Shown here: positions 14,293 through 31,701 of the stretch, piece by piece
How the letters are laid out: every line of letters begins with the position of its first letter
Position numbering within the stretch: the stretch's first letter is position 1
Assembly: GCA_963805855.1 (NCBI GenBank)
Contig: CAWDVW010000003.1
Span: forward strand, 17,151-81,150
DNA length: 64,000 bases
DNA from: Candidatus Dadabacteria bacterium
GTDB lineage: Bacteria > Desulfobacterota_D > UBA1144 > Nemesobacterales > CSP1-2
Direction of reading: 5' to 3'
Program-made: the position numbers and the translations under genes
Notes under the pieces: model-generated
What the model was told of the DNA's origin: nothing
The model's input: only the letters and a program-made list of their open reading frames with translations
Databases searched by the model: none

Positions 14293-14422
14293 TCACATTT
14301 TCGTGAATCTTTAACTTTCAACCCTTATTTCAAAAACGGGTCTATACTTAGGTTAAACATGCAATGGTTCGTTATTCAAACTCAAAATATTGAGAGGAAA
14401 AGTGCAGAGATTGATTTTTAAG

Positions 14423-17400
14423 ATGAAAAGCCTGTCAAAGCTCATTTTTGCACTATTAGCTTTTTCTACCTTCCTCGGGCCTCACAATTCATTTGCCTTT
14501 GGAGAAAACTATGACGAACTCGGGTTTAAAAAGAACAAGACCTATTTGAGATTTTCTCCCGGGGAATATGTAAATATTTTTTCTGGAAACCTATTGCTAA
14601 CACATACCGACCTTATCCTACCCGGTAACGGTGGCTTCAATCTAAAGCTTCAGAGGACTTACAACAGTAAGTTGTTCGCAGACTTCACAAATATAGATAA
14701 TCCCACGATCTCAGGTTTAACATTAGGTAGCTTAGGCTTGGGCTGGGACATGCATTTTGGGAGGATCAGCGACTATGGATTGACCGTGATTAATGATCCT
14801 AATGAATTTTTTCTACAGATGCCAGATGGCTCTATTCATCAGATATATAACAACAACCATCCAAACATAACTTCACATGTCGGCAGAACATACATTACCG
14901 AGGATTTTTGGATCATAGATTATGATCCGGCAACCGATCAATATACCATGATGCTGCCTGATGGAACTGAATATTCCTTTAGTCGGAGGGTCACAAACGG
15001 GTTTTCGTATAGTTTTCTGTATGTAACTTCAATAAGGGATAAGAATGGTAATGAGATTGCGATTGAATACTACGATTGCTGTAATATGACTAATAACGAT
15101 CCTGATACCGGCATAATAGGTACATGTCCCGATCCAACTAATGCGGCTACAATTACACGATACATTAAAAAGGTTACTGATAGTGTGGGAAGAGAGATCA
15201 ATTTTACCATGCTCAATACTATGTGTCGTGGGAACGCAATCAATTCTATTGATGCGAATGGAAATGTTTATAATTATCTTTATTTCCCCGGAGATGATAG
15301 GCCATCTACTACGTGGTTACATTGGGATGGAGGATCAGGACGTCTTTTGGCGGAGGTCCAACCTCCCGAAGGCCCAAGCTGGCAATATTTCTATGATGTT
15401 GATCCAAACGACAGCGAACCTGATGGTGAGTTAATCTCGGTTACATATCCCTCAGGCGGCGTTGCCCAATATGATTATGAAACGGTTGTATTCGACCTTT
15501 TAAATTCCCCAAGCGCAACTTCGCCCGTCCAGTTTCGGATGTTAGCGTCCAGAACCGCATCCGGACCAGATATAACCTCAGGGACGTGGATGTTTGACTA
15601 TGATCCAATAAATACTCAAGACATCACGACCATTACCGATTCATGCGGCAATAAAGAGATTTATGAGTTCTTCGGCTTACGAGCGGGTTCTTTTAATGGT
15701 GGGTGGAGCATAGGTTTGCTCAATAACAAGGAAGTAAGGGATAGTGTTAATCTTATATTCGAAGCCGACAATAATATGTGGACTCCGTATCAAATCTCTA
15801 ATGACGGGACTGATCCGATTGCCGAGACAGCGGGGATATTTTTACCACTTTTGGATGGAGAGACCATTACCAGGGATGGCGTCAATTTCATTACCGATTT
15901 TACATATAACACATTTTATGACTCGCCAACTCAGATTGCAGAAACTGGTGAAATGTCAAGAACCACCGACATTACATATTTTGAAGACCTTAGCGCCGGT
16001 AATTACATCATCGGAAAGCCCCTTGTTACCACGACAACGGTAGATACTGAAAGTAAAACAATTATTAACACTTACGACATTAGTGGAAACCTGCTCTCAG
16101 AAGATAACTTTGGAGTCCTGACGGAATATTCGTATCACCCGGATGGAAATCTTGAGTGGCAGCGAAACGCGAGAGGGTTCTACACCCATTTTGATCAATA
16201 CAGTTTTGGTGTCGCCGGACGAATAAGATTGGGTTCGTCTGACGACCTTGCAAGCGATCCAACAATTGTTGAGTCAAAAACGATCAACTGGGAAGGAACG
16301 ATTTCGAGCTTTACAAACGGGAGGGGGGATGCCACTTCGTACAGTTATGATGGTTTAAACAGACTAACTTCCATAACGCCTCCTCCGAGTGGCGAGGTGC
16401 AAACGACGATTGAATACGATAACCTCAACGCTCGGTCGATGATAATTCGAAAAAGCGATTCGTCTGTCCAGCATTTTCTCGATGGGTTTGGAAGACCGAT
16501 TGGCACATTTTCTACAACAAGCGTACAAACTGAAATCGATTACGATGCGTGCGGCAGCAAGGTATATGAGTCGCTTCCTTTTGACATATTTACTCCCAAC
16601 GTGGGAGAAAGCTTTACCTACGATCCCCTTGGCAGAATTAAAAGCATGACACATCCGGATAATACAAAGATAGATTTATCCTATTCGGGGAATTCAGTAA
16701 TCGTGAAGAACGAACGAAATATAAATACGACTTTAAATTATGCATCCTTCGGTGACCCCGATGAAAAAAGGCTCAGCAGTGTGTTAGACGCTGACAACAA
16801 CACGACCTCCTATGAATACGATCTTCTGGGAAATATCACGCGGGTGGATTCACCTCAGGGAAACGATCGAGTCTTTACATATAATTCCAAAAACTTCCTC
16901 ATTTCTGAGAGCCATCCCGAGAGCGGAACAACTATGTTTGGCCACGACGAGATTGGAAATGTTACATCTAAAACAAATGCCGATGGGAGCTCAATCGACT
17001 TCCAATATGATCGTCTTAACCGTTTGACGTTAGTTGACCATCCCAGTGGGGAGGATGATGTTATTCTTGACTACGATGATGCAAGCAACAGGACACTTAT
17101 GGAGAGCAGCTCTGCCAGTTATTCATATGCCTTCCAGTATGACCAGTCAAACAGGCTAACGAGAGAGGACGTCAATATCGGAGTTATAAGCTATAGTGTT
17201 GACTTTATATACGACGGGGAAAATAATCTTATCCAGTCGATATACCCTTCAGGTGAGGTTGTAGATTACACCTACGATGCGGATGGCAGGATACTCGATA
17301 TCCCACCGTCAGCCGGTAATTTTTCATACCATCCTTCGGGTGGTCCAACTCACTTCGATAATCAAATCGGGGTTTCGTCGGATTTCACATACGACAATCG

Positions 17401-20400
17401 CAGTCGTCTAAAGACCCTACAGGTATCACGAACATTTCCATATCTACTGGTAACTAAAGAGGGTTTGGGTAATGGTACGGTAACGAGCAACCCGATTGGA
17501 ATAGATTGTGGCAGTGACTGTGCATTGCTTGAAGGTGCTGAAGGGACTGAAGTGACACTTACACAGACGCCTGATCCGGATTCAAATTTTGTTAGCTGGG
17601 GAGGGGATCCCGATTGTATCGATGGTGTGGTAACGATGATAGGGACAAAGGTGTGTATCGCGACATATGTATTAAAAGCGAATCAGGAAACACTCACGGT
17701 CACAAAGGATGGAAGTGGAACAGGTACAGTAACAAGCAGCCCTCCCGGAATAGATTGTGGCAGTGATTGCACTGAGAATTATGATGTGAATACCGAGGTT
17801 ACACTAACTGCTACTCCAGATACCGGCTTTGTCTTTCTTAGCTGGGGTGGAGACCCGGATTGTTCAGATGGCGTTGTCACAATGGACGCAAACAAGACCT
17901 GTAATGCTACTTTTGGGCTTCAGCAGTTTACGCTTAATGTTGTAAATCTTAGTGACGGTTTTGGAAGTGGAATAATTACGAGTAGTCCCGCCGGTATTTC
18001 ATGCGGCGGAGATTGCTCGGAGGCCTATGATGAGAATACGCAGGTAACTCTTACACCCATGCCCGACCCGGGATCGCAATTTGGGAGCTGGAGTGGAGCT
18101 TGTGACACTAATGGTATGGTTACAATGGATTCGGACAAATCATGCGGCGCAACCTTCGTTAAATTTTTTACCCTGACAATTCAAAAGAATGGAACCGGTT
18201 CAGGAACGATAACCAGTAATCCTCCTGGAATAGATTGCGGAGCAGATTGTTCGGAATCATATGGAGCAAATTCCATAGTAAGCTTTAATATAACAGCGGA
18301 TCCTGGATCAACATTTGTTGGCTGGAGTGGACCTTCAGGATGCCCAACCTCTCCGACATCGAGTGCTTTGATGGTTTCGGACTTGGCATGCACTGCTACA
18401 TTTGAATTAATTACAGTTCACTCATTAACTGTAAACAAAGCTGGGACAGGCGATGGTACGGTTACGAGCAGCCCAGCTGGTATAGATTGTGGTGCTGATT
18501 GCACGGAGAATTACAACGACGGAACAAACGTGACTCTTACTGTAACGCCAGACCCAGGTTCAGGCCTTACCGGATGGAGCGGCGACGCCGATTGTTCAGA
18601 TGGCGTTGTGACAATGGATGCCGCTAAGAGTTGTACCGCTAATTTTACTCTGATCATACAGCATCCGCTGACGGTGACGAAAGAAGGAACTGGAACCGGG
18701 ACGATTACGAGTAGTCCCGGGGGAATAGACTGCGGCGCTGATTGCGCTGAAAATTATGATGAAAATACTGTTGTAACACTAACTGCAACACCGGACGCGG
18801 GATCGATCTTTGATGGGTGGAGTGGAGATGCGGACTGCTCTGATGACGTAGTTACTATGTCGGCATCTACAGTTTGTAACGCTACTTTCTCCCTCTCAAC
18901 ACAACAATTTACACTCACAGTGAGCAAATTGGGTACAGGATCGGGAACAGTAACCAGTAATCCTCTAGGAGTAGATTGCGGATCAGATTGTGCGGAGAAT
19001 TATGTGGAGAGTACCGTTGTAACATTAACTTCAACACCGGACGCGGGATCAGTTTTTGGTGGTTGGAGTGGAGGTGCGGACTGCTCCGATGGTGTAGTTC
19101 TCATGGATGCAAACAAGAATTGCACTGCGACTTTCGATTTAATCCCACCACAGCAGTTTGCACTTACTGTTGGCGTAACGGGCTCTGGGAGTGGAACGAT
19201 AACAAGCACTCCTGCAGGGATAGACTGCGGCGCAGACTGTGCAGAGAATTACGACGGAAATACCCAGGTAACACTAACAGTAACGCCTGATGCTGGATCG
19301 ATCTTTACGATATGGATGGGTGACGCTGACTGCGCGGATGGGGTTATAACATTGGATGCGAGCAAGACATGCACAGCCGAGATCCTGCTTGAAGATCAAC
19401 CGAACCAGCTATTTGTAGAAGTTGAGAAGTTACCGTTTGTCCCATCCGCGACCGTATCCATTGAGGGAGACCTAGCTATAGTAGGCGCCCGGTCTGCGGA
19501 CCCTTCGGGTAATACTGATCAAGGTTCCGCATTTATATTCGAACGTGATGTTAATGGCGTCTGGCAGCAAGTAGAGGAAATTACGGCGAGTGACGGTGCC
19601 GCGGGAGATAATTTTGGGACTACTGTTTCGATAAGTGGGGATTGGATTGTTGTGGGACTTGCAGTATCTGACATTGTTACTCCCGGTCATGGAAAGCAAG
19701 GTAAAGCATACCTATTTCAGAGAGATGTGAACGGAGTTTGGAGTGAGCAAGGGATTCTTTCTGCGATAGATGGAAAGACCAACGACCAGTATGGCGAACA
19801 AGCAATTATCAGGGGAGACAAGCTTGCGGTTCGCGCTCACTCGGCCGATGTTGGCGCGGATGTTGGGCGCGGCGCTGTTTATGTATACGAAAAGGACCAA
19901 AATGACCTTTGGAATCAGGTAGCAAAATTATCTTCGCCTGTACCTGATCAAGTCATTGCGGACCCGCCCGATTTCTTGTTTGGGATTGATAAGATGGCAT
20001 TTAGTGGCGATAAGCTCCTAACTCAGTTTAAGTCAGGAAGTTTTCTTGCGACAGTATATTTTGATATCTTTGAACGAAGCACTTCTGGAACCTGGGGCCA
20101 CGCATTTACCAAACTGAATTTAAGTCTCCGGCAGGGAGGGATCGATGGTGACGCGGCTATCGTTGGCGGTGAGGTTTTCAAAAGAATTAGCAGCAGTAAT
20201 TGGGCACAAGTACAATCTTTAGGCTTAGCAGATGCCTACATAAGTGGTCAATTTGCACTTGTTGGATCGACAATCTATAAAAAGCAAAGCAACGGCTTAT
20301 GGAGTTTATTCCAAACACTTGATAAAGAAGGGCCATCCGATATCAGAGGTGATAGATTGATTATTGAAGATGGTAACCCATACATATTTGAGTTTGGAGA

Positions 20401-22384
20401 CGCTTTTAAACTCACCGTCACAAAGTCAGGTACAGGAACCGGGAGCGTTACAAGCACGCCTGTTGGAGTGAGCTGTGACGAATCGTGTCTAAATGACTCT
20501 GGGGATTTCTTAGCAGGTACTGAAGTAACTCTTACACCCGTGCCGGGGAGTATTTCGGTGTTTACCGGCTGGGGTGGGGATCCTGATTGTGCGGATGGAG
20601 TGGTCACTATGGACGCTAATAAAGTTTGCGCAGCGAATTTTGATACAGCCGCAAATACCTTTACTTTGACAACAATTAAGTCAGGAGAACATCAATCTAA
20701 GCTTATTGTTAGCGATCCACCGGGTATTTCTTGTGGATTTGATTGTACAGAGGATTATGCTGAAAATAGACAAGTGACTCTGTCAACTTCAGGAGACGCG
20801 TCGGTGTTTTTTCTGGGTTGGAGAGGGGATCCCGATTGTGCAGATGGTGTGGTTACTATGGATGCTGATAAGACCTGCATCGGCACTTTTGAATTTGGTT
20901 GTAGCTGCGATTTGGGGGGGGCGATAGTAGGCACAAGCGGGAACGATACTATTAACGGAACAAGCGGGGACGATATCATATGCGGCTTAGAGGGCGACGA
21001 TGTTATAGACGGAAGAGGAGGAGATGACTGCATATATGGGGCCGCTGGTAATGACACGCTCAGGGGTGATCGCGGGAATGATAGCCTTCGGGGAGGACTG
21101 GGCAATGACACTATAGAGGGTGAAAGGGGGCTTGATGAACTGAGAGGCGGGGACGGTGATGATTCTCTTGACGGTGGGCAAGATACGGATCAGCTCTTCG
21201 GAGGGAATGGCATAGATACTTGTTTGAACGGTGAGAGTAATACCGATTGTGAGTTGCCGGCGACTCAACACACACTTACCGTAAGCAAGAGTGGCACTGG
21301 AGGGGGTACAGTTACTAGTAACCCTGCTGGAATAGATTGCGGGGCCGATTGTACAGAGAATTTTATCGAGAATACATCTGTAACCCTTACCGGAACTCCG
21401 GATGCCGGGTCAAGCTTCGCTGGCTGGAGTGGAGACTGCGACGTCAACGGAATGGTTACCATGAATGCAGCTAAAAGCTGCACCGCTACCTTTGATACTA
21501 TACCTGTGCAGCAGTTTACCTTAAACGTAAATGCAATAGGTACGGGATCAGGAACGATAACCAGTAGCCCGTCGGGAATAGACTGCGGCGTTGATTGCGC
21601 AGGGGATTACAATGACGGAACTAACGTTACTCTTACTGCGACGCCAGACGCTGGGTCCACATTTGATGGGTGGGGTGGAGACTGCGACGTTAATGGAATG
21701 GTTACAATGGACGCAGCCAGGAGCTGTAGCGCGACTTTTACAGCTTCCTCACAGCTGTTTACCCTGACTGTCGACCTTAGTGGTACAGGCACAGGTACTG
21801 TAACGAGTAATGCCCCAGGCATTGATTGTGGTATTGATTGTACTGAAGATTATGCTGTTAATACCGACGTTACTCTAACACCGACTCCTGACACAGGTTC
21901 AACATTCGTCGGATGGTCGGGGGATTCAGATTGCTCAGATGGCACGATTATAATGGATGCAAATAAGAATTGTAGCGCCGCATTTGATATTCAATCCCAG
22001 GACCCATGTGACTGTAATAATCCCAATGCAATTCTCGGAACAAGCGGAAATGATACCCTGACCGGCACACGTCAAAGCGATATCATATGCGGTTTCGCTG
22101 GTGATGATACCTTGATCGGTGAAGGTGGAAGCGATTGTCTCTTTGGCGGTGCGGGAAATGATACCATCCAGGGTGATAACGGGGCGGATAATCTCTTTGG
22201 CGGTGATGACAATGATGTCATTCAAGGTGGTAAAGGAAACGATCTTCTGGACGGTGGGAATGGAACAGATGATCTTGATGGCGGGAGGAATACTGACACG
22301 TGTTTAAACGGTGAAACAAATACCAACTGCGAACAATTTAGTAGCTTAAAAACATTATTGCTCCGTTTAGGAGAGGTCGGATGA
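14423..22384 (+). CDS. Giant secreted YD/RHS-repeat protein fused to Cys-rich InlB-B/Flg_new-like repeats, FG-GAP propeller and RTX-type Ca-binding repeats
   Basis: Signal peptide MKSLSKLIFALLAFSTFLGPHNSFA; RHS N-terminal motif VNIFSGNL..LQRTYNS..LGLGW; many YDxxGR/NRL repeats; 13 x LTVxKxGxGxGTVTSxPxGIDCGxDC; FGTTVSISGD repeats; GGxGxD nonapeptides. Confidence 0.9.
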   Translation: MKSLSKLIFALLAFSTFLGPHNSFAFGENYDELGFKKNKTYLRFSPGEYVNIFSGNLLLTHTDLILPGNGGFNLKLQRTYNSKLFADFTNIDNPTISGLTLGSLGLGWDMHFGRISDYGLTVINDPNEFFLQMPDGSIHQIYNNNHPNITSHVGRTYITEDFWIIDYDPATDQYTMMLPDGTEYSFSRRVTNGFSYSFLYVTSIRDKNGNEIAIEYYDCCNMTNNDPDTGIIGTCPDPTNAATITRYIKKVTDSVGREINFTMLNTMCRGNAINSIDANGNVYNYLYFPGDDRPSTTWLHWDGGSGRLLAEVQPPEGPSWQYFYDVDPNDSEPDGELISVTYPSGGVAQYDYETVVFDLLNSPSATSPVQFRMLASRTASGPDITSGTWMFDYDPINTQDITTITDSCGNKEIYEFFGLRAGSFNGGWSIGLLNNKEVRDSVNLIFEADNNMWTPYQISNDGTDPIAETAGIFLPLLDGETITRDGVNFITDFTYNTFYDSPTQIAETGEMSRTTDITYFEDLSAGNYIIGKPLVTTTTVDTESKTIINTYDISGNLLSEDNFGVLTEYSYHPDGNLEWQRNARGFYTHFDQYSFGVAGRIRLGSSDDLASDPTIVESKTINWEGTISSFTNGRGDATSYSYDGLNRLTSITPPPSGEVQTTIEYDNLNARSMIIRKSDSSVQHFLDGFGRPIGTFSTTSVQTEIDYDACGSKVYESLPFDIFTPNVGESFTYDPLGRIKSMTHPDNTKIDLSYSGNSVIVKNERNINTTLNYASFGDPDEKRLSSVLDADNNTTSYEYDLLGNITRVDSPQGNDRVFTYNSKNFLISESHPESGTTMFGHDEIGNVTSKTNADGSSIDFQYDRLNRLTLVDHPSGEDDVILDYDDASNRTLMESSSASYSYAFQYDQSNRLTREDVNIGVISYSVDFIYDGENNLIQSIYPSGEVVDYTYDADGRILDIPPSAGNFSYHPSGGPTHFDNQIGVSSDFTYDNRSRLKTLQVSRTFPYLLVTKEGLGNGTVTSNPIGIDCGSDCALLEGAEGTEVTLTQTPDPDSNFVSWGGDPDCIDGVVTMIGTKVCIATYVLKANQETLTVTKDGSGTGTVTSSPPGIDCGSDCTENYDVNTEVTLTATPDTGFVFLSWGGDPDCSDGVVTMDANKTCNATFGLQQFTLNVVNLSDGFGSGIITSSPAGISCGGDCSEAYDENTQVTLTPMPDPGSQFGSWSGACDTNGMVTMDSDKSCGATFVKFFTLTIQKNGTGSGTITSNPPGIDCGADCSESYGANSIVSFNITADPGSTFVGWSGPSGCPTSPTSSALMVSDLACTATFELITVHSLTVNKAGTGDGTVTSSPAGIDCGADCTENYNDGTNVTLTVTPDPGSGLTGWSGDADCSDGVVTMDAAKSCTANFTLIIQHPLTVTKEGTGTGTITSSPGGIDCGADCAENYDENTVVTLTATPDAGSIFDGWSGDADCSDDVVTMSASTVCNATFSLSTQQFTLTVSKLGTGSGTVTSNPLGVDCGSDCAENYVESTVVTLTSTPDAGSVFGGWSGGADCSDGVVLMDANKNCTATFDLIPPQQFALTVGVTGSGSGTITSTPAGIDCGADCAENYDGNTQVTLTVTPDAGSIFTIWMGDADCADGVITLDASKTCTAEILLEDQPNQLFVEVEKLPFVPSATVSIEGDLAIVGARSADPSGNTDQGSAFIFERDVNGVWQQVEEITASDGAAGDNFGTTVSISGDWIVVGLAVSDIVTPGHGKQGKAYLFQRDVNGVWSEQGILSAIDGKTNDQYGEQAIIRGDKLAVRAHSADVGADVGRGAVYVYEKDQNDLWNQVAKLSSPVPDQVIADPPDFLFGIDKMAFSGDKLLTQFKSGSFLATVYFDIFERSTSGTWGHAFTKLNLSLRQGGIDGDAAIVGGEVFKRISSSNWAQVQSLGLADAYISGQFALVGSTIYKKQSNGLWSLFQTLDKEGPSDIRGDRLIIEDGNPYIFEFGDAFKLTVTKSGTGTGSVTSTPVGVSCDESCLNDSGDFLAGTEVTLTPVPGSISVFTGWGGDPDCADGVVTMDANKVCAANFDTAANTFTLTTIKSGEHQSKLIVSDPPGISCGFDCTEDYAENRQVTLSTSGDASVFFLGWRGDPDCADGVVTMDADKTCIGTFEFGCSCDLGGAIVGTSGNDTINGTSGDDIICGLEGDDVIDGRGGDDCIYGAAGNDTLRGDRGNDSLRGGLGNDTIEGERGLDELRGGDGDDSLDGGQDTDQLFGGNGIDTCLNGESNTDCELPATQHTLTVSKSGTGGGTVTSNPAGIDCGADCTENFIENTSVTLTGTPDAGSSFAGWSGDCDVNGMVTMNAAKSCTATFDTIPVQQFTLNVNAIGTGSGTITSSPSGIDCGVDCAGDYNDGTNVTLTATPDAGSTFDGWGGDCDVNGMVTMDAARSCSATFTASSQLFTLTVDLSGTGTGTVTSNAPGIDCGIDCTEDYAVNTDVTLTPTPDTGSTFVGWSGDSDCSDGTIIMDANKNCSAAFDIQSQDPCDCNNPNAILGTSGNDTLTGTRQSDIICGFAGDDTLIGEGGSDCLFGGAGNDTIQGDNGADNLFGGDDNDVIQGGKGNDLLDGGNGTDDLDGGRNTDTCLNGETNTNCEQFSSLKTLLLRLGEVG
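17440..21990 (+). repeat. Intragenic ~240-bp Cys-rich domain repeats (13 copies in blocks of 8, 2 and 3)
   Basis: Counted in the translation, each with GIDCGxDC and W[GS]GDxDC-like motifs. Confidence 0.85.
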
Positions 22385-22466
22385 TATTATCTGAGAAAGA
22401 AATTCCATTAAGTTCGCTGATACGTACTGGGAGACATCAACCTATAGGAGGTCGAAGGATAGATAA

Positions 22467-22850
22467 ATGTTAGGTCTAATTTTATGCTGGATTGTTTCCT
22501 TAGTGCTGGCCCTTGTTTTGGTGTTTATTGTCTTAACATAGGAAGTTTAAAAAATAGGGACAATGGGCGTGACTACTCGTTACGGCGGATCATATTCTGT
22601 AGGTCTCACGGCAATAACATTTCCCTGTTCATTACAGCTTCTCGTGGGGACATTGATCTTTCAATTTGAATTTGCTTGACGTGTACCTCAGGGCGGTGAG
22701 GCTTTGTTTATTTGTTTATCTAGACTGTTAACGTCTTCCCTTTCTTTGACTCTCAAACCGAGGATTCGTGCACGTTGAGGCTCTTACAATCCTTTACTGC
22801 GGGGTGATGTTGCTCAGGATAACCTATTTGCGAGGCATTGGAGTTCGTTA
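22467..22850 (+). pseudogene. Possible decayed small membrane-protein gene
   Basis: MLGLILCWIVSLVLALVLVFIVLT then several in-frame stops, with hydrophobic segments continuing in the same frame. Confidence 0.3.
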
Positions 22851-23132
22851 GATTAGTAAGGAGTTGGGAATGATGTAGTATTACGAGAACATATTAGGTG
22901 TTCGTAAAAATAACTATATAAACAAAGAATCAAATAAACAATGCCGGACTCCAACTTCTCTTCTTAAAGTTTGGGCCCAAAGCGGGTTGCATCCCCTTTA
23001 CTTATGAGGCGTTCGAGGTTTGATTTTATGATCGAAGTGTTTTTTGTTGAGAGATGTAAAAACGGCTGTCTCTAAGTTAACATATATGCGTAAAAAAATA
23101 TAAGTGGGAGCGTTACTGCAGCTGGAGGAAAC

Positions 23133-24122
23133 ATGAGCGGAGAAATAATACGGTTTGTAACGAAAAAACTACTGGACAACAAAGAGCCTATAACATTTGA
23201 TGAGGCTTACAGACTAGCTCTTCTTGGCGAGGAGCACTTACTTGACCTGGTCAGCCTTTCTTATAAGGTTATGGGGGCATATAAGGGCAAGGGTATCCAT
23301 TTGTGTGGCATTATGAGTGCAAAAACCGGGAATTGTCCTGAGGACTGTGCTTTTTGTTCCCAATCCATTCACAGTGAGGGACCAACGCTTGTTTCCTCAA
23401 TTATCGATCCCTCTCTTATACTCGAGTCAGCAAAAGAGGCAGAAAAATCTGGAGCCACTGAGTTTTGTATTGTAACAAGTGGTAAGGGACCGGACAAAAA
23501 AACCTTTAGAAAAGTTATCGATGCTGTCGAGTTAATCCACCGCTATACCAATCTCAGTATTGGATGTTCCCTTGGGATATTAGCAGGAGAACAAGCAAAA
23601 CTTCTTTCGAAAGCAGGAGTAAACCGATATAATCATAATCTTGAAACATCGCGAAGCTTCTTTCCTCATATTTGTACTACTCACAGCTATGAAGAGCGTG
23701 TTAAGACTGCGACTTTGGTCAAGGAAGAAGGAATGGAGCTATGTTGCGGGGGGATCCTGGGCATGGGAGAATCACTTGAACAAAGAGTTGAGTTTGCCTT
23801 TGAACTTCGAGATCTCGACCCTGCTTTAGTGCCTATAAACTTTCTTAATCCACGTCCTGGAACTGCTTTAGCTACGGAGTCTCCACTCACACCGATCGAA
23901 GCGATAAAAAGTATAGCCCTATTTAGGCTTATCCTTCCACAAAGTATTCTAATATGTGCGGGAGGAAGAGAGGTTGTCCTTAGAGAACTTCAGCCTTTGG
24001 CTTTGCTTGCCGGTGCGAACGGCCTCATAACAGGGAATTATCTCACAACACAAGGACGTTCAACGAAAGAGGACTTACAGATGCTTAGGGATTTAAATAT
24101 GTCTCCAGTGAAACTTAACTGA
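23133..24122 (+). CDS. bioB: Biotin synthase
   Basis: Radical SAM CPEDCAFC, YNHNLETS, CCGGILGMGE, VPINFL, GNYLTT. Confidence 0.95.
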   Translation: MSGEIIRFVTKKLLDNKEPITFDEAYRLALLGEEHLLDLVSLSYKVMGAYKGKGIHLCGIMSAKTGNCPEDCAFCSQSIHSEGPTLVSSIIDPSLILESAKEAEKSGATEFCIVTSGKGPDKKTFRKVIDAVELIHRYTNLSIGCSLGILAGEQAKLLSKAGVNRYNHNLETSRSFFPHICTTHSYEERVKTATLVKEEGMELCCGGILGMGESLEQRVEFAFELRDLDPALVPINFLNPRPGTALATESPLTPIEAIKSIALFRLILPQSILICAGGREVVLRELQPLALLAGANGLITGNYLTTQGRSTKEDLQMLRDLNMSPVKLN

Positions 24123-25882: not shown

Positions 25883-26496
25883 GATGCACGGGAAGTCTCG
25901 ATATATATGCCTGCTATGCTTGGTAGTCTAACGAAAAATTATGCGAACTGAAGTTTTTATTAACACCTCGATATCGGATGCTATTCGAACCAGCCTATCA
26001 CTATTTCTTTCGGTTGTAAATAAAATGGGGAGGCACGCCTTTATTTAAAATTTCATTTCCCGTCGGAGGCCGTTGCGAACTCTAGTCTAAATTCGCACTA
26101 CAATCTTTTCACATGTCATGATGAATTCATCGGAACCACACTTCAAGCCTTTCTTGGTGTTTCTCGGGGGTAATATTCCTATAGGGTCTTGATTGTTACC
26201 GGTCATGGTATAGATAAATAGGGTTTACCCGTAATCCGCGTGGCAGCCCTTAATTCAACAACAGCGATTAGAAGACAACCCGGAAACCAATCTCACGCGA
26301 TAAATAACGGTTTTCTTTACACTCTAGGAATTTGACAACAGAATAAAGGTCTGTCACTAGTTATTTCACGTTATTACAGGTTATTTTGAAACGGATCGGA
26401 CCTTCATTGACCAGCATAATTGAAATAAGGATATATCACCCCCTCATATTCGCACTAGTAAATAGCTCACATCGGCGAAATAATCGGAGGAACAGT

Positions 26497-28055
26497 TTGT
26501 CACGGAAACGTCCCATTGCCCATTCAACTGAATCAAGTGTCAGTCTGGATGAAGAGCGTCGAGAGTTTGCTAAGCTACAAAGACGGCTTGTCCCAATTTA
26601 TCGAGACATTTTCCCCGATCGGGTAGCGCCTCGCACGGTCATTATCATACCAAGCCTCTCATTAGACGAAGATGTGTTATCAAAGGTGCCGGGCGTTCAC
26701 CATTATGAGGAACGTATGCTCTGCCTGCTCATTCTTTTGCGAATGCCACGCACGAAACTTGTTTTCGTGACCAGCCGGCCCATCCAAGACTCCATTATTG
26801 ACTACTATTTGCACCTGTTACCCGGTATCCCCAGCAGGCATGCGCGCAGTCGGCTCACTCTTTTAAGTTGTTATGATGCGTCCCCTATACCCTTAACTCA
26901 GAAAATATTGGAGCGCCCGCGATTGTTGGAGGACATTCGCGCGGCTATTCTCGATCCTCTATCCGCCCACATAACCTGCTATAATTCGACCAATTTGGAA
27001 CGCACCCTTGCCCTGCGTCTTGGAGTTCCTCTTTACGCCTGTGACCCTGACCTCATATATTTGGGCTCAAAAAGCAACAGTCGAGAAACATTTCGGTCCG
27101 CCGGAGTAGATATGCCCGAAGGGGTCGAGAATCTTCGAGATGAACAGGACATAGTCAATTCACTAACCCTATTAAAACAAGAGAATCCGTCTTTAAAACG
27201 GGCGGTTTTAAAGCTGAACGACGGCTTCTCCGGCGAGGGAAACGCCCTATTTGACTACGACATTGACGATGCCGACTTTTCTGCGAGTCATCTGACGAAA
27301 AGAATTAGCGGCGAACTTACCGAACCGAATTCGTTTTGAAGCGGCTGGAGAAACCTGGGAGGAGTATATTGGCAAATTTCGGGAGATGGGTGGGATCGTC
27401 GAGTGACTGGATTGATGCTAAAGAGAAGCGATCGCCTTCGTTTCAATGCCGGATTGACCCTTTGGGTGAGGTGGAAGTCCTATCGACGCACGACCAGGTT
27501 TTAGGTGGACCGAACGGCCAGATTTATCTCGGGTGTTCGTTCCCGGCTGATGAAGTCTACCGATTGGAAATTCAGGAAGCAGGCCTAAAGATTGCGGGGA
27601 TTCTAAAGCAAAAAGGGGTTCTTAACATATTCGGTGTCGACTTTATCTCCGTTAAGTCGGGCAACCGGTGGAAGCATTACGCACTCGAGATAAATCTTCG
27701 CAAAGGGGGCACAACCTTTCCGTATCTGGCACTCCAATTCTTAACGGACGGCTGTTACGATCCTGAAACGGGCCTGTTTCGATTAATCAACGGTCAGCCC
27801 CGTTTCTACTACGCCTCAGACAACCTCCAGAAGGCACGATATAAAGGCTTGGTACCCGATGATTTGATCGACATGATGGTGTATAACCAGCTCCATTTTG
27901 ACAGTGCGTCACAACAGGGTGTCGTTTTTCACCTCATGGGAGCTTTATCGGAATTTGGAAAATTCGGGGTCACCTGCATTGGAGAGAATCCTGAACGAGC
28001 CCAGGAGCTTTACACCGCGACAATGGCTGCTCTCGATCGATCGAGACGATCGTAG
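26497..28055 (+). pseudogene. PGM1-related ATP-grasp peptide ligase, split by two +1 indels
   Basis: HYEERML, LGSKSNSR, KLNDGFSGEGNA, STHDQVLGG, EINLRKGGTT. A bridging third-frame peptide RIRFEAAGETWEEYIGKFREMGGIVE lies between ~27318 and ~27404. GGAGG SD before TTG 26497. Confidence 0.85.
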
Positions 28056-30264: not shown

Positions 30265-31701
30265 ATGAACATAAAAATGATTCTACGGAGAGATGATTAC
30301 TGGCTTACAAGGCTTGTTCTGCAGCGGGGGTTGGCATTTGTTTATCTGATTGCTTTTATAGCAGTCATTCATCAATTCAAGCCGCTACTAGGGGAAGGGG
30401 GACTTCTTCCGGTTCCGGAATTCATAGATCAGATGCGTTTTGCCGAATCGCCGAGCATCTTCTTCTGGTTTCCAACTGATTTCGCTTTTGATTTGCTAGG
30501 ATGGATTGGGGTTGCGCTTTCTCTATTTGCCCTTTCGGGATTCTCGGAAAAATTCGGCAACCTTGTGTCTGCGGCTACCTGGGGCGCACTCTGGGTGATT
30601 TACCTCTCCTTTGTAAATGTAGGTCAAACATTCTATGCGTTTGGCTGGGAGACACTGCTTTTGGAAGCCGGGTTTCTTGCGATTTTTTTGGGCGCCGAAA
30701 AAACCGCACCGTCGTTTCTGGTAATCCTTCTTTTTAACTGGTTGCTTTTCCGGGTGATGTTTGGCGCGGGTCTTATAAAAATTCGCGGTGATAGCTGCTG
30801 GCGGGATTTAACCTGCCTTCAATACCATTATGAAACACAACCGATGCCGAATCCCCTTAGCTGGTATTTCCATTGGATGCCGGCATGGATTCATAAAACA
30901 GGGGTGCTCTTTAATCACTTCACGGAGTTGGTGGTCCCGTTTGCTTATTTTGCGCCTTCTCAGATAAGCGGCTTCGCAGGGCTTATAACCCTATTCTTTC
31001 ATTCGTGGCTTTTCGCCAGCGGGAACTTTTCATTCTTGGGACTCCTCACGATGGTTCTGGCTTTGAGTACCCTTAGCGACTCATGGTTGAAGCGCGTTAT
31101 TCGAATTCGCCCACCAGAGCTTGCTCCGGGCACCCGTCTTTATTTTTCAGCTACGGCGGGACTCACGGTGCTTGTTGCGGTCTTAAGTATTTATCCCATA
31201 AGAAACATGGTGTCCGAAATCCAATTGATGAACGCTTCTTTCGAGCCCTTACACCTGGTGAATACCTATGGTGCCTTTGGAACCATCACGCGGCCGCGGT
31301 ATGAAGTAATTGTCGAGGGAACGAATGAACCCGTGGTTACGGATGCTACCAGTTGGCGGGAATATGAATTTATCGGGAAGCCCGGCGATGTGACCCGCAC
31401 CCCGCCGCAGATAGCACCCTATCACTTACGGCTTGACTGGCTGATGTGGTTCGCCGCATTTTCTTCGCCGAGGCAGCATCCTTGGTTCATAAGTTTTTTG
31501 GAAAAACTTTTAGAGGGCGATAAAGCTGTCTTGGGCCTCCTTCGATATAATCCGTTTCCAGATCATCCACCGACATTTGTCCGCGCGTCATTATATGAAT
31601 ATCATTTCACCACTCCTGAGGGACGAAGCAAGAGCGGCGCTGTTTGGAGCCGAAAACTCGTCGGGCTTTATTTCCCGCCAGTCTCGCTTCGTAAGCAATA
31701 A
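30265..31701 (+). CDS. Lipase maturation factor family membrane protein
   Basis: FGWETLLLEAGFL, FGAGLIKIRGD, HYETQPMPNP, NTYGAFG, PYHLRLDWLMWFAA. Confidence 0.93.
   Translation: MNIKMILRRDDYWLTRLVLQRGLAFVYLIAFIAVIHQFKPLLGEGGLLPVPEFIDQMRFAESPSIFFWFPTDFAFDLLGWIGVALSLFALSGFSEKFGNLVSAATWGALWVIYLSFVNVGQTFYAFGWETLLLEAGFLAIFLGAEKTAPSFLVILLFNWLLFRVMFGAGLIKIRGDSCWRDLTCLQYHYETQPMPNPLSWYFHWMPAWIHKTGVLFNHFTELVVPFAYFAPSQISGFAGLITLFFHSWLFASGNFSFLGLLTMVLALSTLSDSWLKRVIRIRPPELAPGTRLYFSATAGLTVLVAVLSIYPIRNMVSEIQLMNASFEPLHLVNTYGAFGTITRPRYEVIVEGTNEPVVTDATSWREYEFIGKPGDVTRTPPQIAPYHLRLDWLMWFAAFSSPRQHPWFISFLEKLLEGDKAVLGLLRYNPFPDHPPTFVRASLYEYHFTTPEGRSKSGAVWSRKLVGLYFPPVSLRKQ

Follow-up and report, generated by a model that had tools for sequence, protein, structure and literature searches.

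The stretch of DNA studied here, a 64,000-nucleotide segment (hereafter the window; G000:C3:17151-81150) of the 3.11-Mb genome of a Candidatus Dadabacteria bacterium (G000; 9 contigs, 93.8% complete), encodes a giant protein of 2653 amino acids (aa) that joins part of an RHS/YD shell to a long array of adhesin-type modules. We propose, with a probability of about 0.72, that two genes together make up an RHS (YD-shell) polymorphic toxin whose shell contains an inserted adhesin array: the giant would be the large subunit, and SHORT, an RHS-core gene of about 508 aa on contig C2 of the same genome, would supply the remaining piece of the shell, the core and the toxin. A first-pass annotation of the window had offered two readings of the giant: a non-toxic adhesin on a YD scaffold, which its title preferred, or a toxin with a targeting insert of ~1600 aa whose final shell, core and toxin had been lost or were encoded in trans. 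The first of these is not the best fit to the results below, while the second stood in its in-trans form, with an insert of ~1650 aa and an orphan core gene elsewhere in the genome, and had no support in the form that assumed loss.

Domain organization of the giant protein

The giant gene is one open frame at window positions 14390..22384 (+), which gives 2664 aa when counted from a TTG codon and 2653 aa from the ATG at 14423 (14423-22384, +). The protein begins with MKSLSKLIFALLAFSTFLGPHNSFA, followed by FG at the putative cleavage point of a Sec-type signal, and its first 27 residues had a predicted local distance difference test score (pLDDT) below 50 in the AlphaFold2 (AF2) model. The signal is followed by a DUF6531 plug and by YD repeats that end in ...YDNRSRLKTLQVSR at aa 990-1003 (nucleotides 17390-17431; Table 1), in agreement with the first-pass description of a Sec signal and about 1000 aa of RHS N-terminus and YD repeats stopping near 17430; hereafter, aa 1-1003 are referred to as the N-half. 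Beyond this point, the cysteine pattern comprises 13 four-Cys units arranged as 8 + 2 + 3 and broken by the propeller and by two six-Cys RTX blocks, and together with the Pfam matches it bears out the order that had been read by the annotation (eight Cys-rich repeats, FG-GAP, two repeats, RTX, three repeats, RTX). At the site of the FG-GAP propeller, relatives carry a YNCE/lactonase-type propeller instead.

No RHS core was detected in the giant: TIGR03696 (Rhs_assc_core) was absent from the nine NCBIfam families listed for it at E<=0.1, and a core hidden Markov model (HMM), built from sequences of this analysis, gave no match in it, though the same model found the core in 47 of its best 150 relatives (those examined among the 48,828 proteins that an exhaustive HMMER search with giant aa 1-1030 retrieved at E<=0.001). 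After the last RTX block the protein simply ends, with no C-terminal toxin and no adjoining immunity gene, and a biotin synthase gene lies downstream. The absence of both core and toxin tip that had been claimed for this protein is therefore real.

An unlinked gene with the core and the toxin

The TIGR03696 profile matched G000 in exactly one place, C2:355705-355944 on the minus strand, within a 555-aa frame (83.8 bits versus a cut-off of 32.5); this orphan core gene is SHORT. All five matches to the PF05593 YD repeats in G000 fell within the giant and the SHORT frame, and none in any other gene. SHORT begins with MLGRMSSCIDSLILILISVLFASNAYA followed by Q, which is signal-peptide-like by eye, and continues with YD repeats over ~200 aa, then a core that has the two DPxG motifs and, last, an Ntox10 domain (E 6.3e-30). 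The two motifs and the preceding Arg were invariant in alignment A2 (six rows, five of them independent), and the core looks intact at the level of its motifs. A 79-aa Imm27 gene (E 5.5e-11) overlaps the stop of SHORT by 4 bases, and Ntox10 domains on RHS-repeat proteins, with Imm27 as primary immunity protein, are tabulated by Zhang et al. 2012 (PMC3482391). By its domain content, the SHORT-Imm27 pair is a toxin-immunity module.

Beyond the second DPxG motif, similarity among the SHORT orthologues breaks off abruptly and their toxin domains differ (Ntox10, TNT and others), as in polymorphic toxins. The AF2 model of the Ntox10 tip had a pLDDT of 63.6 and no Foldseek match in the Protein Data Bank (PDB) at E<=0.001; among its weak matches (E 0.07-2.4) are several entries with a NADase/ADP-ribosyltransferase fold, a lead only. 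An upstream GTG with AAGGAG (534 aa) was considered as the start of SHORT and set aside; the orthologue in genome G001 has a stop just before MLGR, where 13 close homologues start, and the length was taken as 508 aa from MLGR. Directly downstream of SHORT-Imm27 lies a BrnT toxin / BrnA-CopG antitoxin pair (L002:8245-8752 on the minus strand, equal to G000:C2 ~354245-354752), of which the antitoxin open reading frame (ORF) is 97% identical in G001.

Table 1. Features of the giant (window coordinates) and of SHORT (contig and locus coordinates)
Feature	Residues	Position	Strand	Evidence
Sec-type signal peptide (...NSFA, then FG)	1-25	14423..14497	+	Read by eye: basic n-region, hydrophobic core LIFALLAFSTFL, small residues at -3/-1
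N-terminal plug (DUF6531 / SpvB-N-like) and ~3/4 of the RHS/YD shell	26-1003	14498..17431	+	Pfam DUF6531 (aa 47-112, E 2.4e-6) and RHS_repeat (PF05593, E 9.9e-35, 4 stretches, last listed 841-877); NCBIfam YD_repeat_2x (TIGR01643, E 1.9e-23); AF2 model
Eight four-Cys InlB-B-type repeats (start of insert)	1004-1657	17432..19393	+	Flg_new_2 (divergent InlB B-repeat; E 9.8e-90, 11 stretches in the giant), motif, Cys spacing
FG-GAP beta-propeller	1658-1993	19394..20401	+	FG-GAP_2 (E 1.9e-23, 3 stretches)
B-type repeats 9-10	1994-2158	20402..20896	+	Pfam, Cys spacing
RTX calcium-binding block 1	2159-2279	20897..21259	+	HemolysinCabind (E 9.6e-34, 7 stretches in the giant), GGxGxD-type nonapeptides
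B-type repeats 11-13	2280-2526	21260..22000	+	Pfam, Cys spacing
RTX calcium-binding block 2	2527-2636	22001..22330	+	Pfam, NCBIfam, Cys pattern
Short tail EQFSSLKTLLLRLGEVG and stop (fission breakpoint)		22331..22384	+	Alignment of ends with fused relatives
SHORT	~508 aa	G000:C2:355138-356742 = L002:9139-10743	minus	TIGR03696, PF05593, Ntox10

Fused and uninterrupted relatives of the two genes

Homologues in which YD repeats resume after the insert were found: four relatives (P0003, P0004, G006 and G022) carry both parts as one ORF, in the order N-shell, adhesin array, C-shell with core, and toxin. The first 1030 aa of the giant are 54-56% identical to the fused proteins (54-55% for P0003 and P0004), and 64% identical to that of G006; P0003 (2615 aa) and P0004 (3144 aa) share its N-terminus, B-repeats, and propeller or RTX blocks, and have the core at aa 2352-2432 and 2871-2951, respectively. 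SHORT was 55% identical to aa 2096-2490 of P0003, 59% to aa 2633-2960 of P0004, 57% to the 2787-aa frame of G006 (over 549 columns reaching the C-terminus, Ntox10 tip included) and 53% to the 4555-aa frame of G022, while all other RHS proteins in the listed set were at most 45% identical to it; SHORT is therefore taken as the orthologue of the C-terminus of these fused relatives. G006 and G022 are genomes of the same family and order as G000; within this group the split state, with real stops and a separate C-half gene of ~510-540 aa each, was found in G000 and G001, which belong to the same genus, and in G010 from another genus. Just downstream of the fused giant gene of G022, we also observed an orphan RHS-core fragment (58-aa frame; G022:C1:307564-307725, in L020), which looks like a displaced toxin-cassette remnant. 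Such remnants are known at rhs loci.

The N-half and SHORT also align to adjacent segments in nine uninterrupted RHS relatives of 1289-1519 aa (P0031, P0128, P0117, P0151, P0111, P0142, P0096, P0071 and P0126); in P0031, for example, giant 615-999 falls on 518-904 and residues 61-352 of the SHORT frame on 911-1256. Because the two parts are adjacent there, the 1650-aa array is taken to be inserted between two consecutive YD repeats, as it is in the fused relatives, and the cut between the two genes falls at the C-terminal edge of the insertion.

Of 40 inspected homologues of SHORT (P0152-P0191), at least 25 are stand-alone metagenome proteins of ~500 aa that open with M and a signal-like stretch immediately ahead of their YD repeats and bear different toxin tips, and seven are fragments that show the fused-type linker. 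One metagenome protein of 677 aa (P0167) has an N-terminal signal of its own, one RTX block, the linker, an internal signal-like segment and the C-half, and represents a third cut pattern. In wider relatives, DUF6531-YD is followed by other arrays (BACON, DUF7948/SBBP, PKD, Calx-beta, cadherin and HYR); of 11 long ones that were scanned, three had a core at the far end and eight did not (P0018, P0124, P0064, P0036, P0083, P0014, P0024 and P0030). Judging from these domain orders, the insertion of arrays into RHS shells may be a broad phenomenon.

Predicted assembly of one shell from two chains

The AF2 model of giant aa 1-1003 (from a 27-row alignment) had a pLDDT of 85.6 and a predicted template modeling score (pTM) of 0.83. 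Its best structural matches were type VI secretion system (T6SS) effectors: Foldseek found RhsA 7q97 (E 4e-37) and 7pq5 (TMq 0.67), and VIA-align gave Z scores of 24.7 for the RHS shell 8qja, 23.1 for 7q97 and 19.9 for Tse5 (8cp6_B, 48-924), and placed residues 40-1003 on 149-930 of RhsP 8h8a (Z 21.7, root-mean-square deviation 3.2, 741 aligned). The modeled shell is incomplete and ends 200-250 residues short of the shell end in solved RHS structures. SHORT matches by sequence 883-1151 of 8h8a and 996-1289 of 7q97, i.e., the remainder of the shell up to the cleavage site, and the giant, which covers only 149-930 of 8h8a, is not a single chain with a complete shell.

When giant 340-1003 and SHORT 28-322 were predicted as a complex, the interface score (ipSAE) was 0.88 in all three runs, against 0.00 for the best of three controls; such a mark was reached by 116 of 157 solved complexes and by two of 215 mismatched pairs. 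The runs agreed in at least 98% of contacts, with a partner pLDDT of at least 90. The tightest predicted contacts are antiparallel, between giant 995-1003 and SHORT 31-39, so that the two ends of the insertion would lie side by side, like those of a domain inserted in a hairpin turn. The two proteins are thus predicted to dock strand to strand.

Conservation and co-occurrence of the two halves

Between G000 and G001, the N-half (1003 codons) had a ratio of nonsynonymous to synonymous substitution rates (dN/dS) of 0.106 and SHORT aa 1-320 one of 0.087, compared with 0.102 for NDH2 and 0.232 for sigma-70 among the flanking genes; against G002, a third genome of the genus, the N-half had a value of 0.131. 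The value of the insert (0.219) was left unused, as misalignment of the repeats makes it unreliable. By these ratios, both halves are under purifying selection. Across 41 related genomes, an N-half orthologue was found in eight, six of which also have a C-half orthologue at >=55% identity (three as a separate gene, two fused, and one as a fragment at a contig end), while none of the 33 genomes without an N-half has one; as the genomes are kin and not independent, these counts are descriptive.

Such constraint bears on the possibility that the giant works alone, as a non-toxic surface adhesin on an open three-quarter YD shell, with SHORT as an independent toxin or a gene that is being lost. The ~200 aa of YD repeats in SHORT cannot form a shell of their own, yet its shell and core part is constrained like a housekeeping gene and the protein diversifies only at the toxin tip, and G000 has no other YD protein that could be its partner; the two pieces are, moreover, exactly complementary and occur together as counted above. 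A solitary adhesin would fit a giant that has neither core nor toxin and whose C-terminal 1650 aa are adhesin-type modules, and it would fit the lack of linkage between the genes, the lack of a detected C-half in G002 and the eight core-less proteins among the 11 long DUF6531-YD-adhesin relatives, though the latter may be contig-end fragments or have partners in trans. Taken together, we consider this explanation unlikely.

The 3' end of the giant gene and its genomic context

The stop at 22382-22384 is real, being bridged by Logan contigs in two runs from two studies (X1 record 2, spanning 21953-22417 with 0 differences, and X5 record 17, spanning 21604-22493 with 7 differences), one of which may itself be the source sample of the giant; contigs from marsh and soil metagenomes contain the same stretch. 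The orthologues of G001 and P0002, from two other assemblies, likewise terminate at this place behind RTX block 2, the giants of genus 1 stop 17-27 aa beyond the last RTX cysteine, and the junction at aa 1003 (~17430) is common to all seven orthologues from other assemblies. Of the two junctions at which a misassembly would have refuted the first-pass annotation, the one at the 3' end shows no sign of it. Where the giant has its tail, the fused relatives continue with a 55-110-aa linker, a signal-like segment and the C-shell; a tblastn search with the C-part of G006 and with SHORT against window 22000-23300 returned the RTX end and chance-level rows only, with no C-half remnant in 22385-23132.

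An assembly chimera or truncation arising from mis-joined repeats, or a pseudogene remnant left after a 3' deletion, would be conceivable for a long and internally repetitive gene in a metagenome-type assembly, all the more as the giant ORF is cut by a contig end at three of the seven orthologue loci (G002, G012 and G004). The intact 2653-aa frame and the low dN/dS of the N-half in both comparisons argue against it, as do the shared 3' end in other assemblies, the different stop of G010, the two bridging contigs and the aa 1003 junction common to the seven orthologues, and an artefact of this kind is hardly credible. Upstream synteny, another point against an artefact, is kept within the genus, and the downstream flank differs between G000 and G001.

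The neighbours of the giant are housekeeping genes (sigma-70, a monofunctional transglycosylase and, downstream, the biotin synthase). Elsewhere in the window, two ORFs that overlap by four bases (26386-27339 and 27336-28055, +) both match ATP-grasp_IQCH, the second also PGM1_C, and by their matches look like one PGM1-type ATP-grasp gene in two frames, owing either to a frameshift or to a genuine split. The stretch 30265-31701 (+) encodes a bacterial lipase maturation factor homologue (LMF1 E 2.4e-58, LMF1_C E 1.4e-52). This family is mostly known from eukaryotes.

Proposed fission history and the internal signal-like segment

In a tree of the N-half (18 rows), the clade of G000, G001, G002 and P0002 is sister to the fused G022 and P0004 (support 96/99), and G010 and P0005 belong to a different clade (100/100); this tree has long outgroup branches and an unresolved backbone. 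The giant of G010 (L021, ends 14734) keeps, before its stop, a relic of a signal-like segment and of the first ~10 C-half residues, which shares 55% identity across 51 aa with the stand-alone C-half gene of L022. The split clades lie apart on the tree and their breakpoints differ, which fits at least two fissions of a fused ancestor, and the relic of G010 suggests that fission proceeded perhaps by duplication and complementary loss.

In all four fused proteins, the insert is separated from the returning YD repeats by a linker of 55-110 aa with poor conservation and then by a well-conserved signal-peptide-like segment with a hydrophobic core and AxA|Q (in G006, ...SLRLILVSVLFASNAYA followed by Q), located at aa ~2285-2310 in L014 (G006) and ~4040-4063 in L019 (G022), and likewise in P0003 and P0004. 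The same segment forms the N-terminus of the split C-half genes, so that the C-half already bore an export signal and fission was therefore viable. When inspected by eye for an internal translation start, neither G006 nor G022 showed a start codon accompanied by a Shine-Dalgarno-like motif immediately ahead of the internal segment. In P0049, a more distant fused relative, one ORF contains at aa ~1450-1505 a hydrophobic span and RRRR, directly followed by a signal-like segment, and then an RHS core; the span and RRRR resemble a C-terminal sorting tail, and two genes may have been fused or may be read through. In the fused forms, the internal segment may be cut, may be active in export of the C-part, or may be a relic.

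A relic is what would be expected if the split were ancestral, like that of the adjacent TcB/TcC genes, and the four fused forms were secondary fusions. The AxA|Q segment in every one of them, the sorting-tail-like transmembrane span of P0049 directly before its signal-like segment and the poor conservation of the linkers are compatible with such a history. We nevertheless regard it as quite improbable, considering that the relic in G010 points to a fused ancestor, that the two split clades are separated by fused ones and have different breakpoints, that the outgroup state is an uninterrupted single-chain RHS protein, and that the linkers stay open over all their codons in the four fused forms. 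An ancestral split would in any case alter the history only, not the two-chain mechanism.

A wider proposal is that Sec-exported RHS cocoons with shell-inserted adhesin arrays form a widespread, undescribed two-chain class in which even fused genes yield two polypeptides through the internal segment. We put this forward tentatively, as a possibility that falls short of what we would expect. If true, the internal AxA|Q segment would either be cleaved or serve in a second round of export; for many of the core-less DUF6531-YD-adhesin giants of metagenomes, with BACON and the other arrays named above, there would be small unlinked partners that swap toxin tips, and one targeting scaffold could be armed in trans with different toxins.

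Proposed mechanism and points that weigh against it

We hypothesize that both the giant and SHORT are exported by Sec into the periplasm of the diderm host, where the first beta-strand of mature SHORT (aa 31-39) would pair with the last strand of the N-half (aa 995-1003) and close the cocoon. Inside it, the aspartyl-protease RHS core would cut the toxin free, and the calcium-binding array (B-repeats, propeller and RTX rolls) would project from the seam and either bind the surface of a target cell or anchor the capsule. Export across the outer membrane might use a secretin-based (type II) route; profile searches of G000 found two Omp85 and two secretin genes. The type II secretin route takes folded assemblies. 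Imm27 would shield the producer and its kin.

Several points weigh against this two-gene toxin. The giant and SHORT are unlinked and lie on different contigs; no RNA run contains window 21600-23200, and co-expression of the two genes is an assumption. Both signal peptides are putative and were assigned by eye, and no outer-membrane export route or translocator has been identified for the two chains. The docking result may reflect the likeness of the two proteins to solved single-chain RHS shells and to TcB/TcC. Neither SHORT nor TIGR03696 found a C-half in G002 (95% complete) or G012 (89%), in both of which the giant is cut by a contig end. Finally, the signal-like segment is kept inside the fused relatives, which the simple two-chain model does not explain.

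Comparison with known systems

The nearest known system is the BC cocoon of Tc toxins (compared through structures 4o9x, 4igl and 6h6e), where the YD shell is built from two polypeptides, TcB and TcC, as we propose for the present pair. Like TcC, SHORT is the smaller chain and brings the end portion of the shell, an aspartyl-protease core and a polymorphic toxin tip, and like the "orphan" TcC YenC3, which is encoded at a distant locus (PMC11067744), it is encoded away from its partner. The giant resembles TcB in its SpvB-N/TcB-like N-terminal region (6p0x on model residues 49-318, Z 12.1) and in having a beta-propeller associated with the shell. Unlike in Tc toxins, the cut falls deep within the TcC part (on a TcdB2-TccC3 fusion the N-half ends near residue 1824, and SHORT aligns to 2004-2190), both chains have putative Sec-type signals, and the propeller is within the 1650-aa array between two YD repeats rather than at the TcB gate. 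The TcA domains PF18276 and PF03538 had no match in G000, and the control genomes gave none either. The toxin is here also paired, again unlike in Tc toxins, with an immunity gene, a pairing that points toward bacterial targets.

The T6SS Rhs effectors (RhsA 7q97, Rhs1/Tre23 7pq5, RhsP 8h8a and Tse5 8cp6), with Z scores of 20-25 the best structural matches to the N-half, share the core motifs of SHORT, which covers the ~290 residues of their shells that precede the cleavage site. These effectors are single chains with PAAR/VgrG-linked N-termini, without a Sec signal and without an insert, whereas the giant starts with a putative signal peptide and DUF6531 and its shell is both interrupted and split; TssC (PF05943) had no match in G000 at its 93.8% completeness.

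Bacterial teneurin-like proteins (BiTLP; 9ifo/9pt5) are YD-shell toxins that depend on Sec, are directed to the surface and combine adhesion domains with a propeller, immunity genes and a small cleaved C-terminal toxin kept in the shell (PMC13018210), and a putative Sec signal, YD shell, adhesion-type domains, propeller and immunity gene are found here as well. In BiTLP, a single chain has its adhesion domains and an NHL propeller on the N-terminal side of a shell that is not interrupted (order FN-plug, NHL, YD-shell; PMC13018210), whereas the array of the giant lies inside the shell sequence at about three-quarters of its length, its propeller is of the FG-GAP type and comes after aa 1657, and the protein is split. 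The Pfam scan of the giant listed neither NHL nor FN-plug, and the match of the N-half to 9ifo (Z 18.2) is in the shell only. The Sec-dependent RHS toxins of PMC3482391 agree with the present pair in their Ntox10/Imm27 families, RHS repeats and assigned general-secretory route; they are described as single RHS proteins, and the portions of that paper available to us mention no shell that is divided between two unlinked genes and has an adhesin array where it is cut. In the open-access literature, we found no description of a shell-inserted array or of an RHS protein split in this way, and a paper on Aridivitia, another lineage (PMC13755416), makes no mention of Rhs.

Implications for RHS shells

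RHS/YD shells have so far been regarded either as capsules made of one chain or as pairs of TcB and TcC with a single fixed cutting place. Such a shell can tolerate 1250-3300 aa of adhesin modules between two YD repeats and, if the two-gene reading holds, can be cut there into two unlinked, separately exported genes that are still conserved. Annotations commonly list "core-less RHS proteins" and "500-aa RHS core proteins"; the two can then be halves of one machine, from which follows the annotation rule for split RHS proteins to look for a partner gene. The pair would offer a natural system for how a YD shell assembles from pieces outside the cytoplasm, and the internal signal-like segment of the fused relatives a testable puzzle on the Sec export of very long multi-part proteins.

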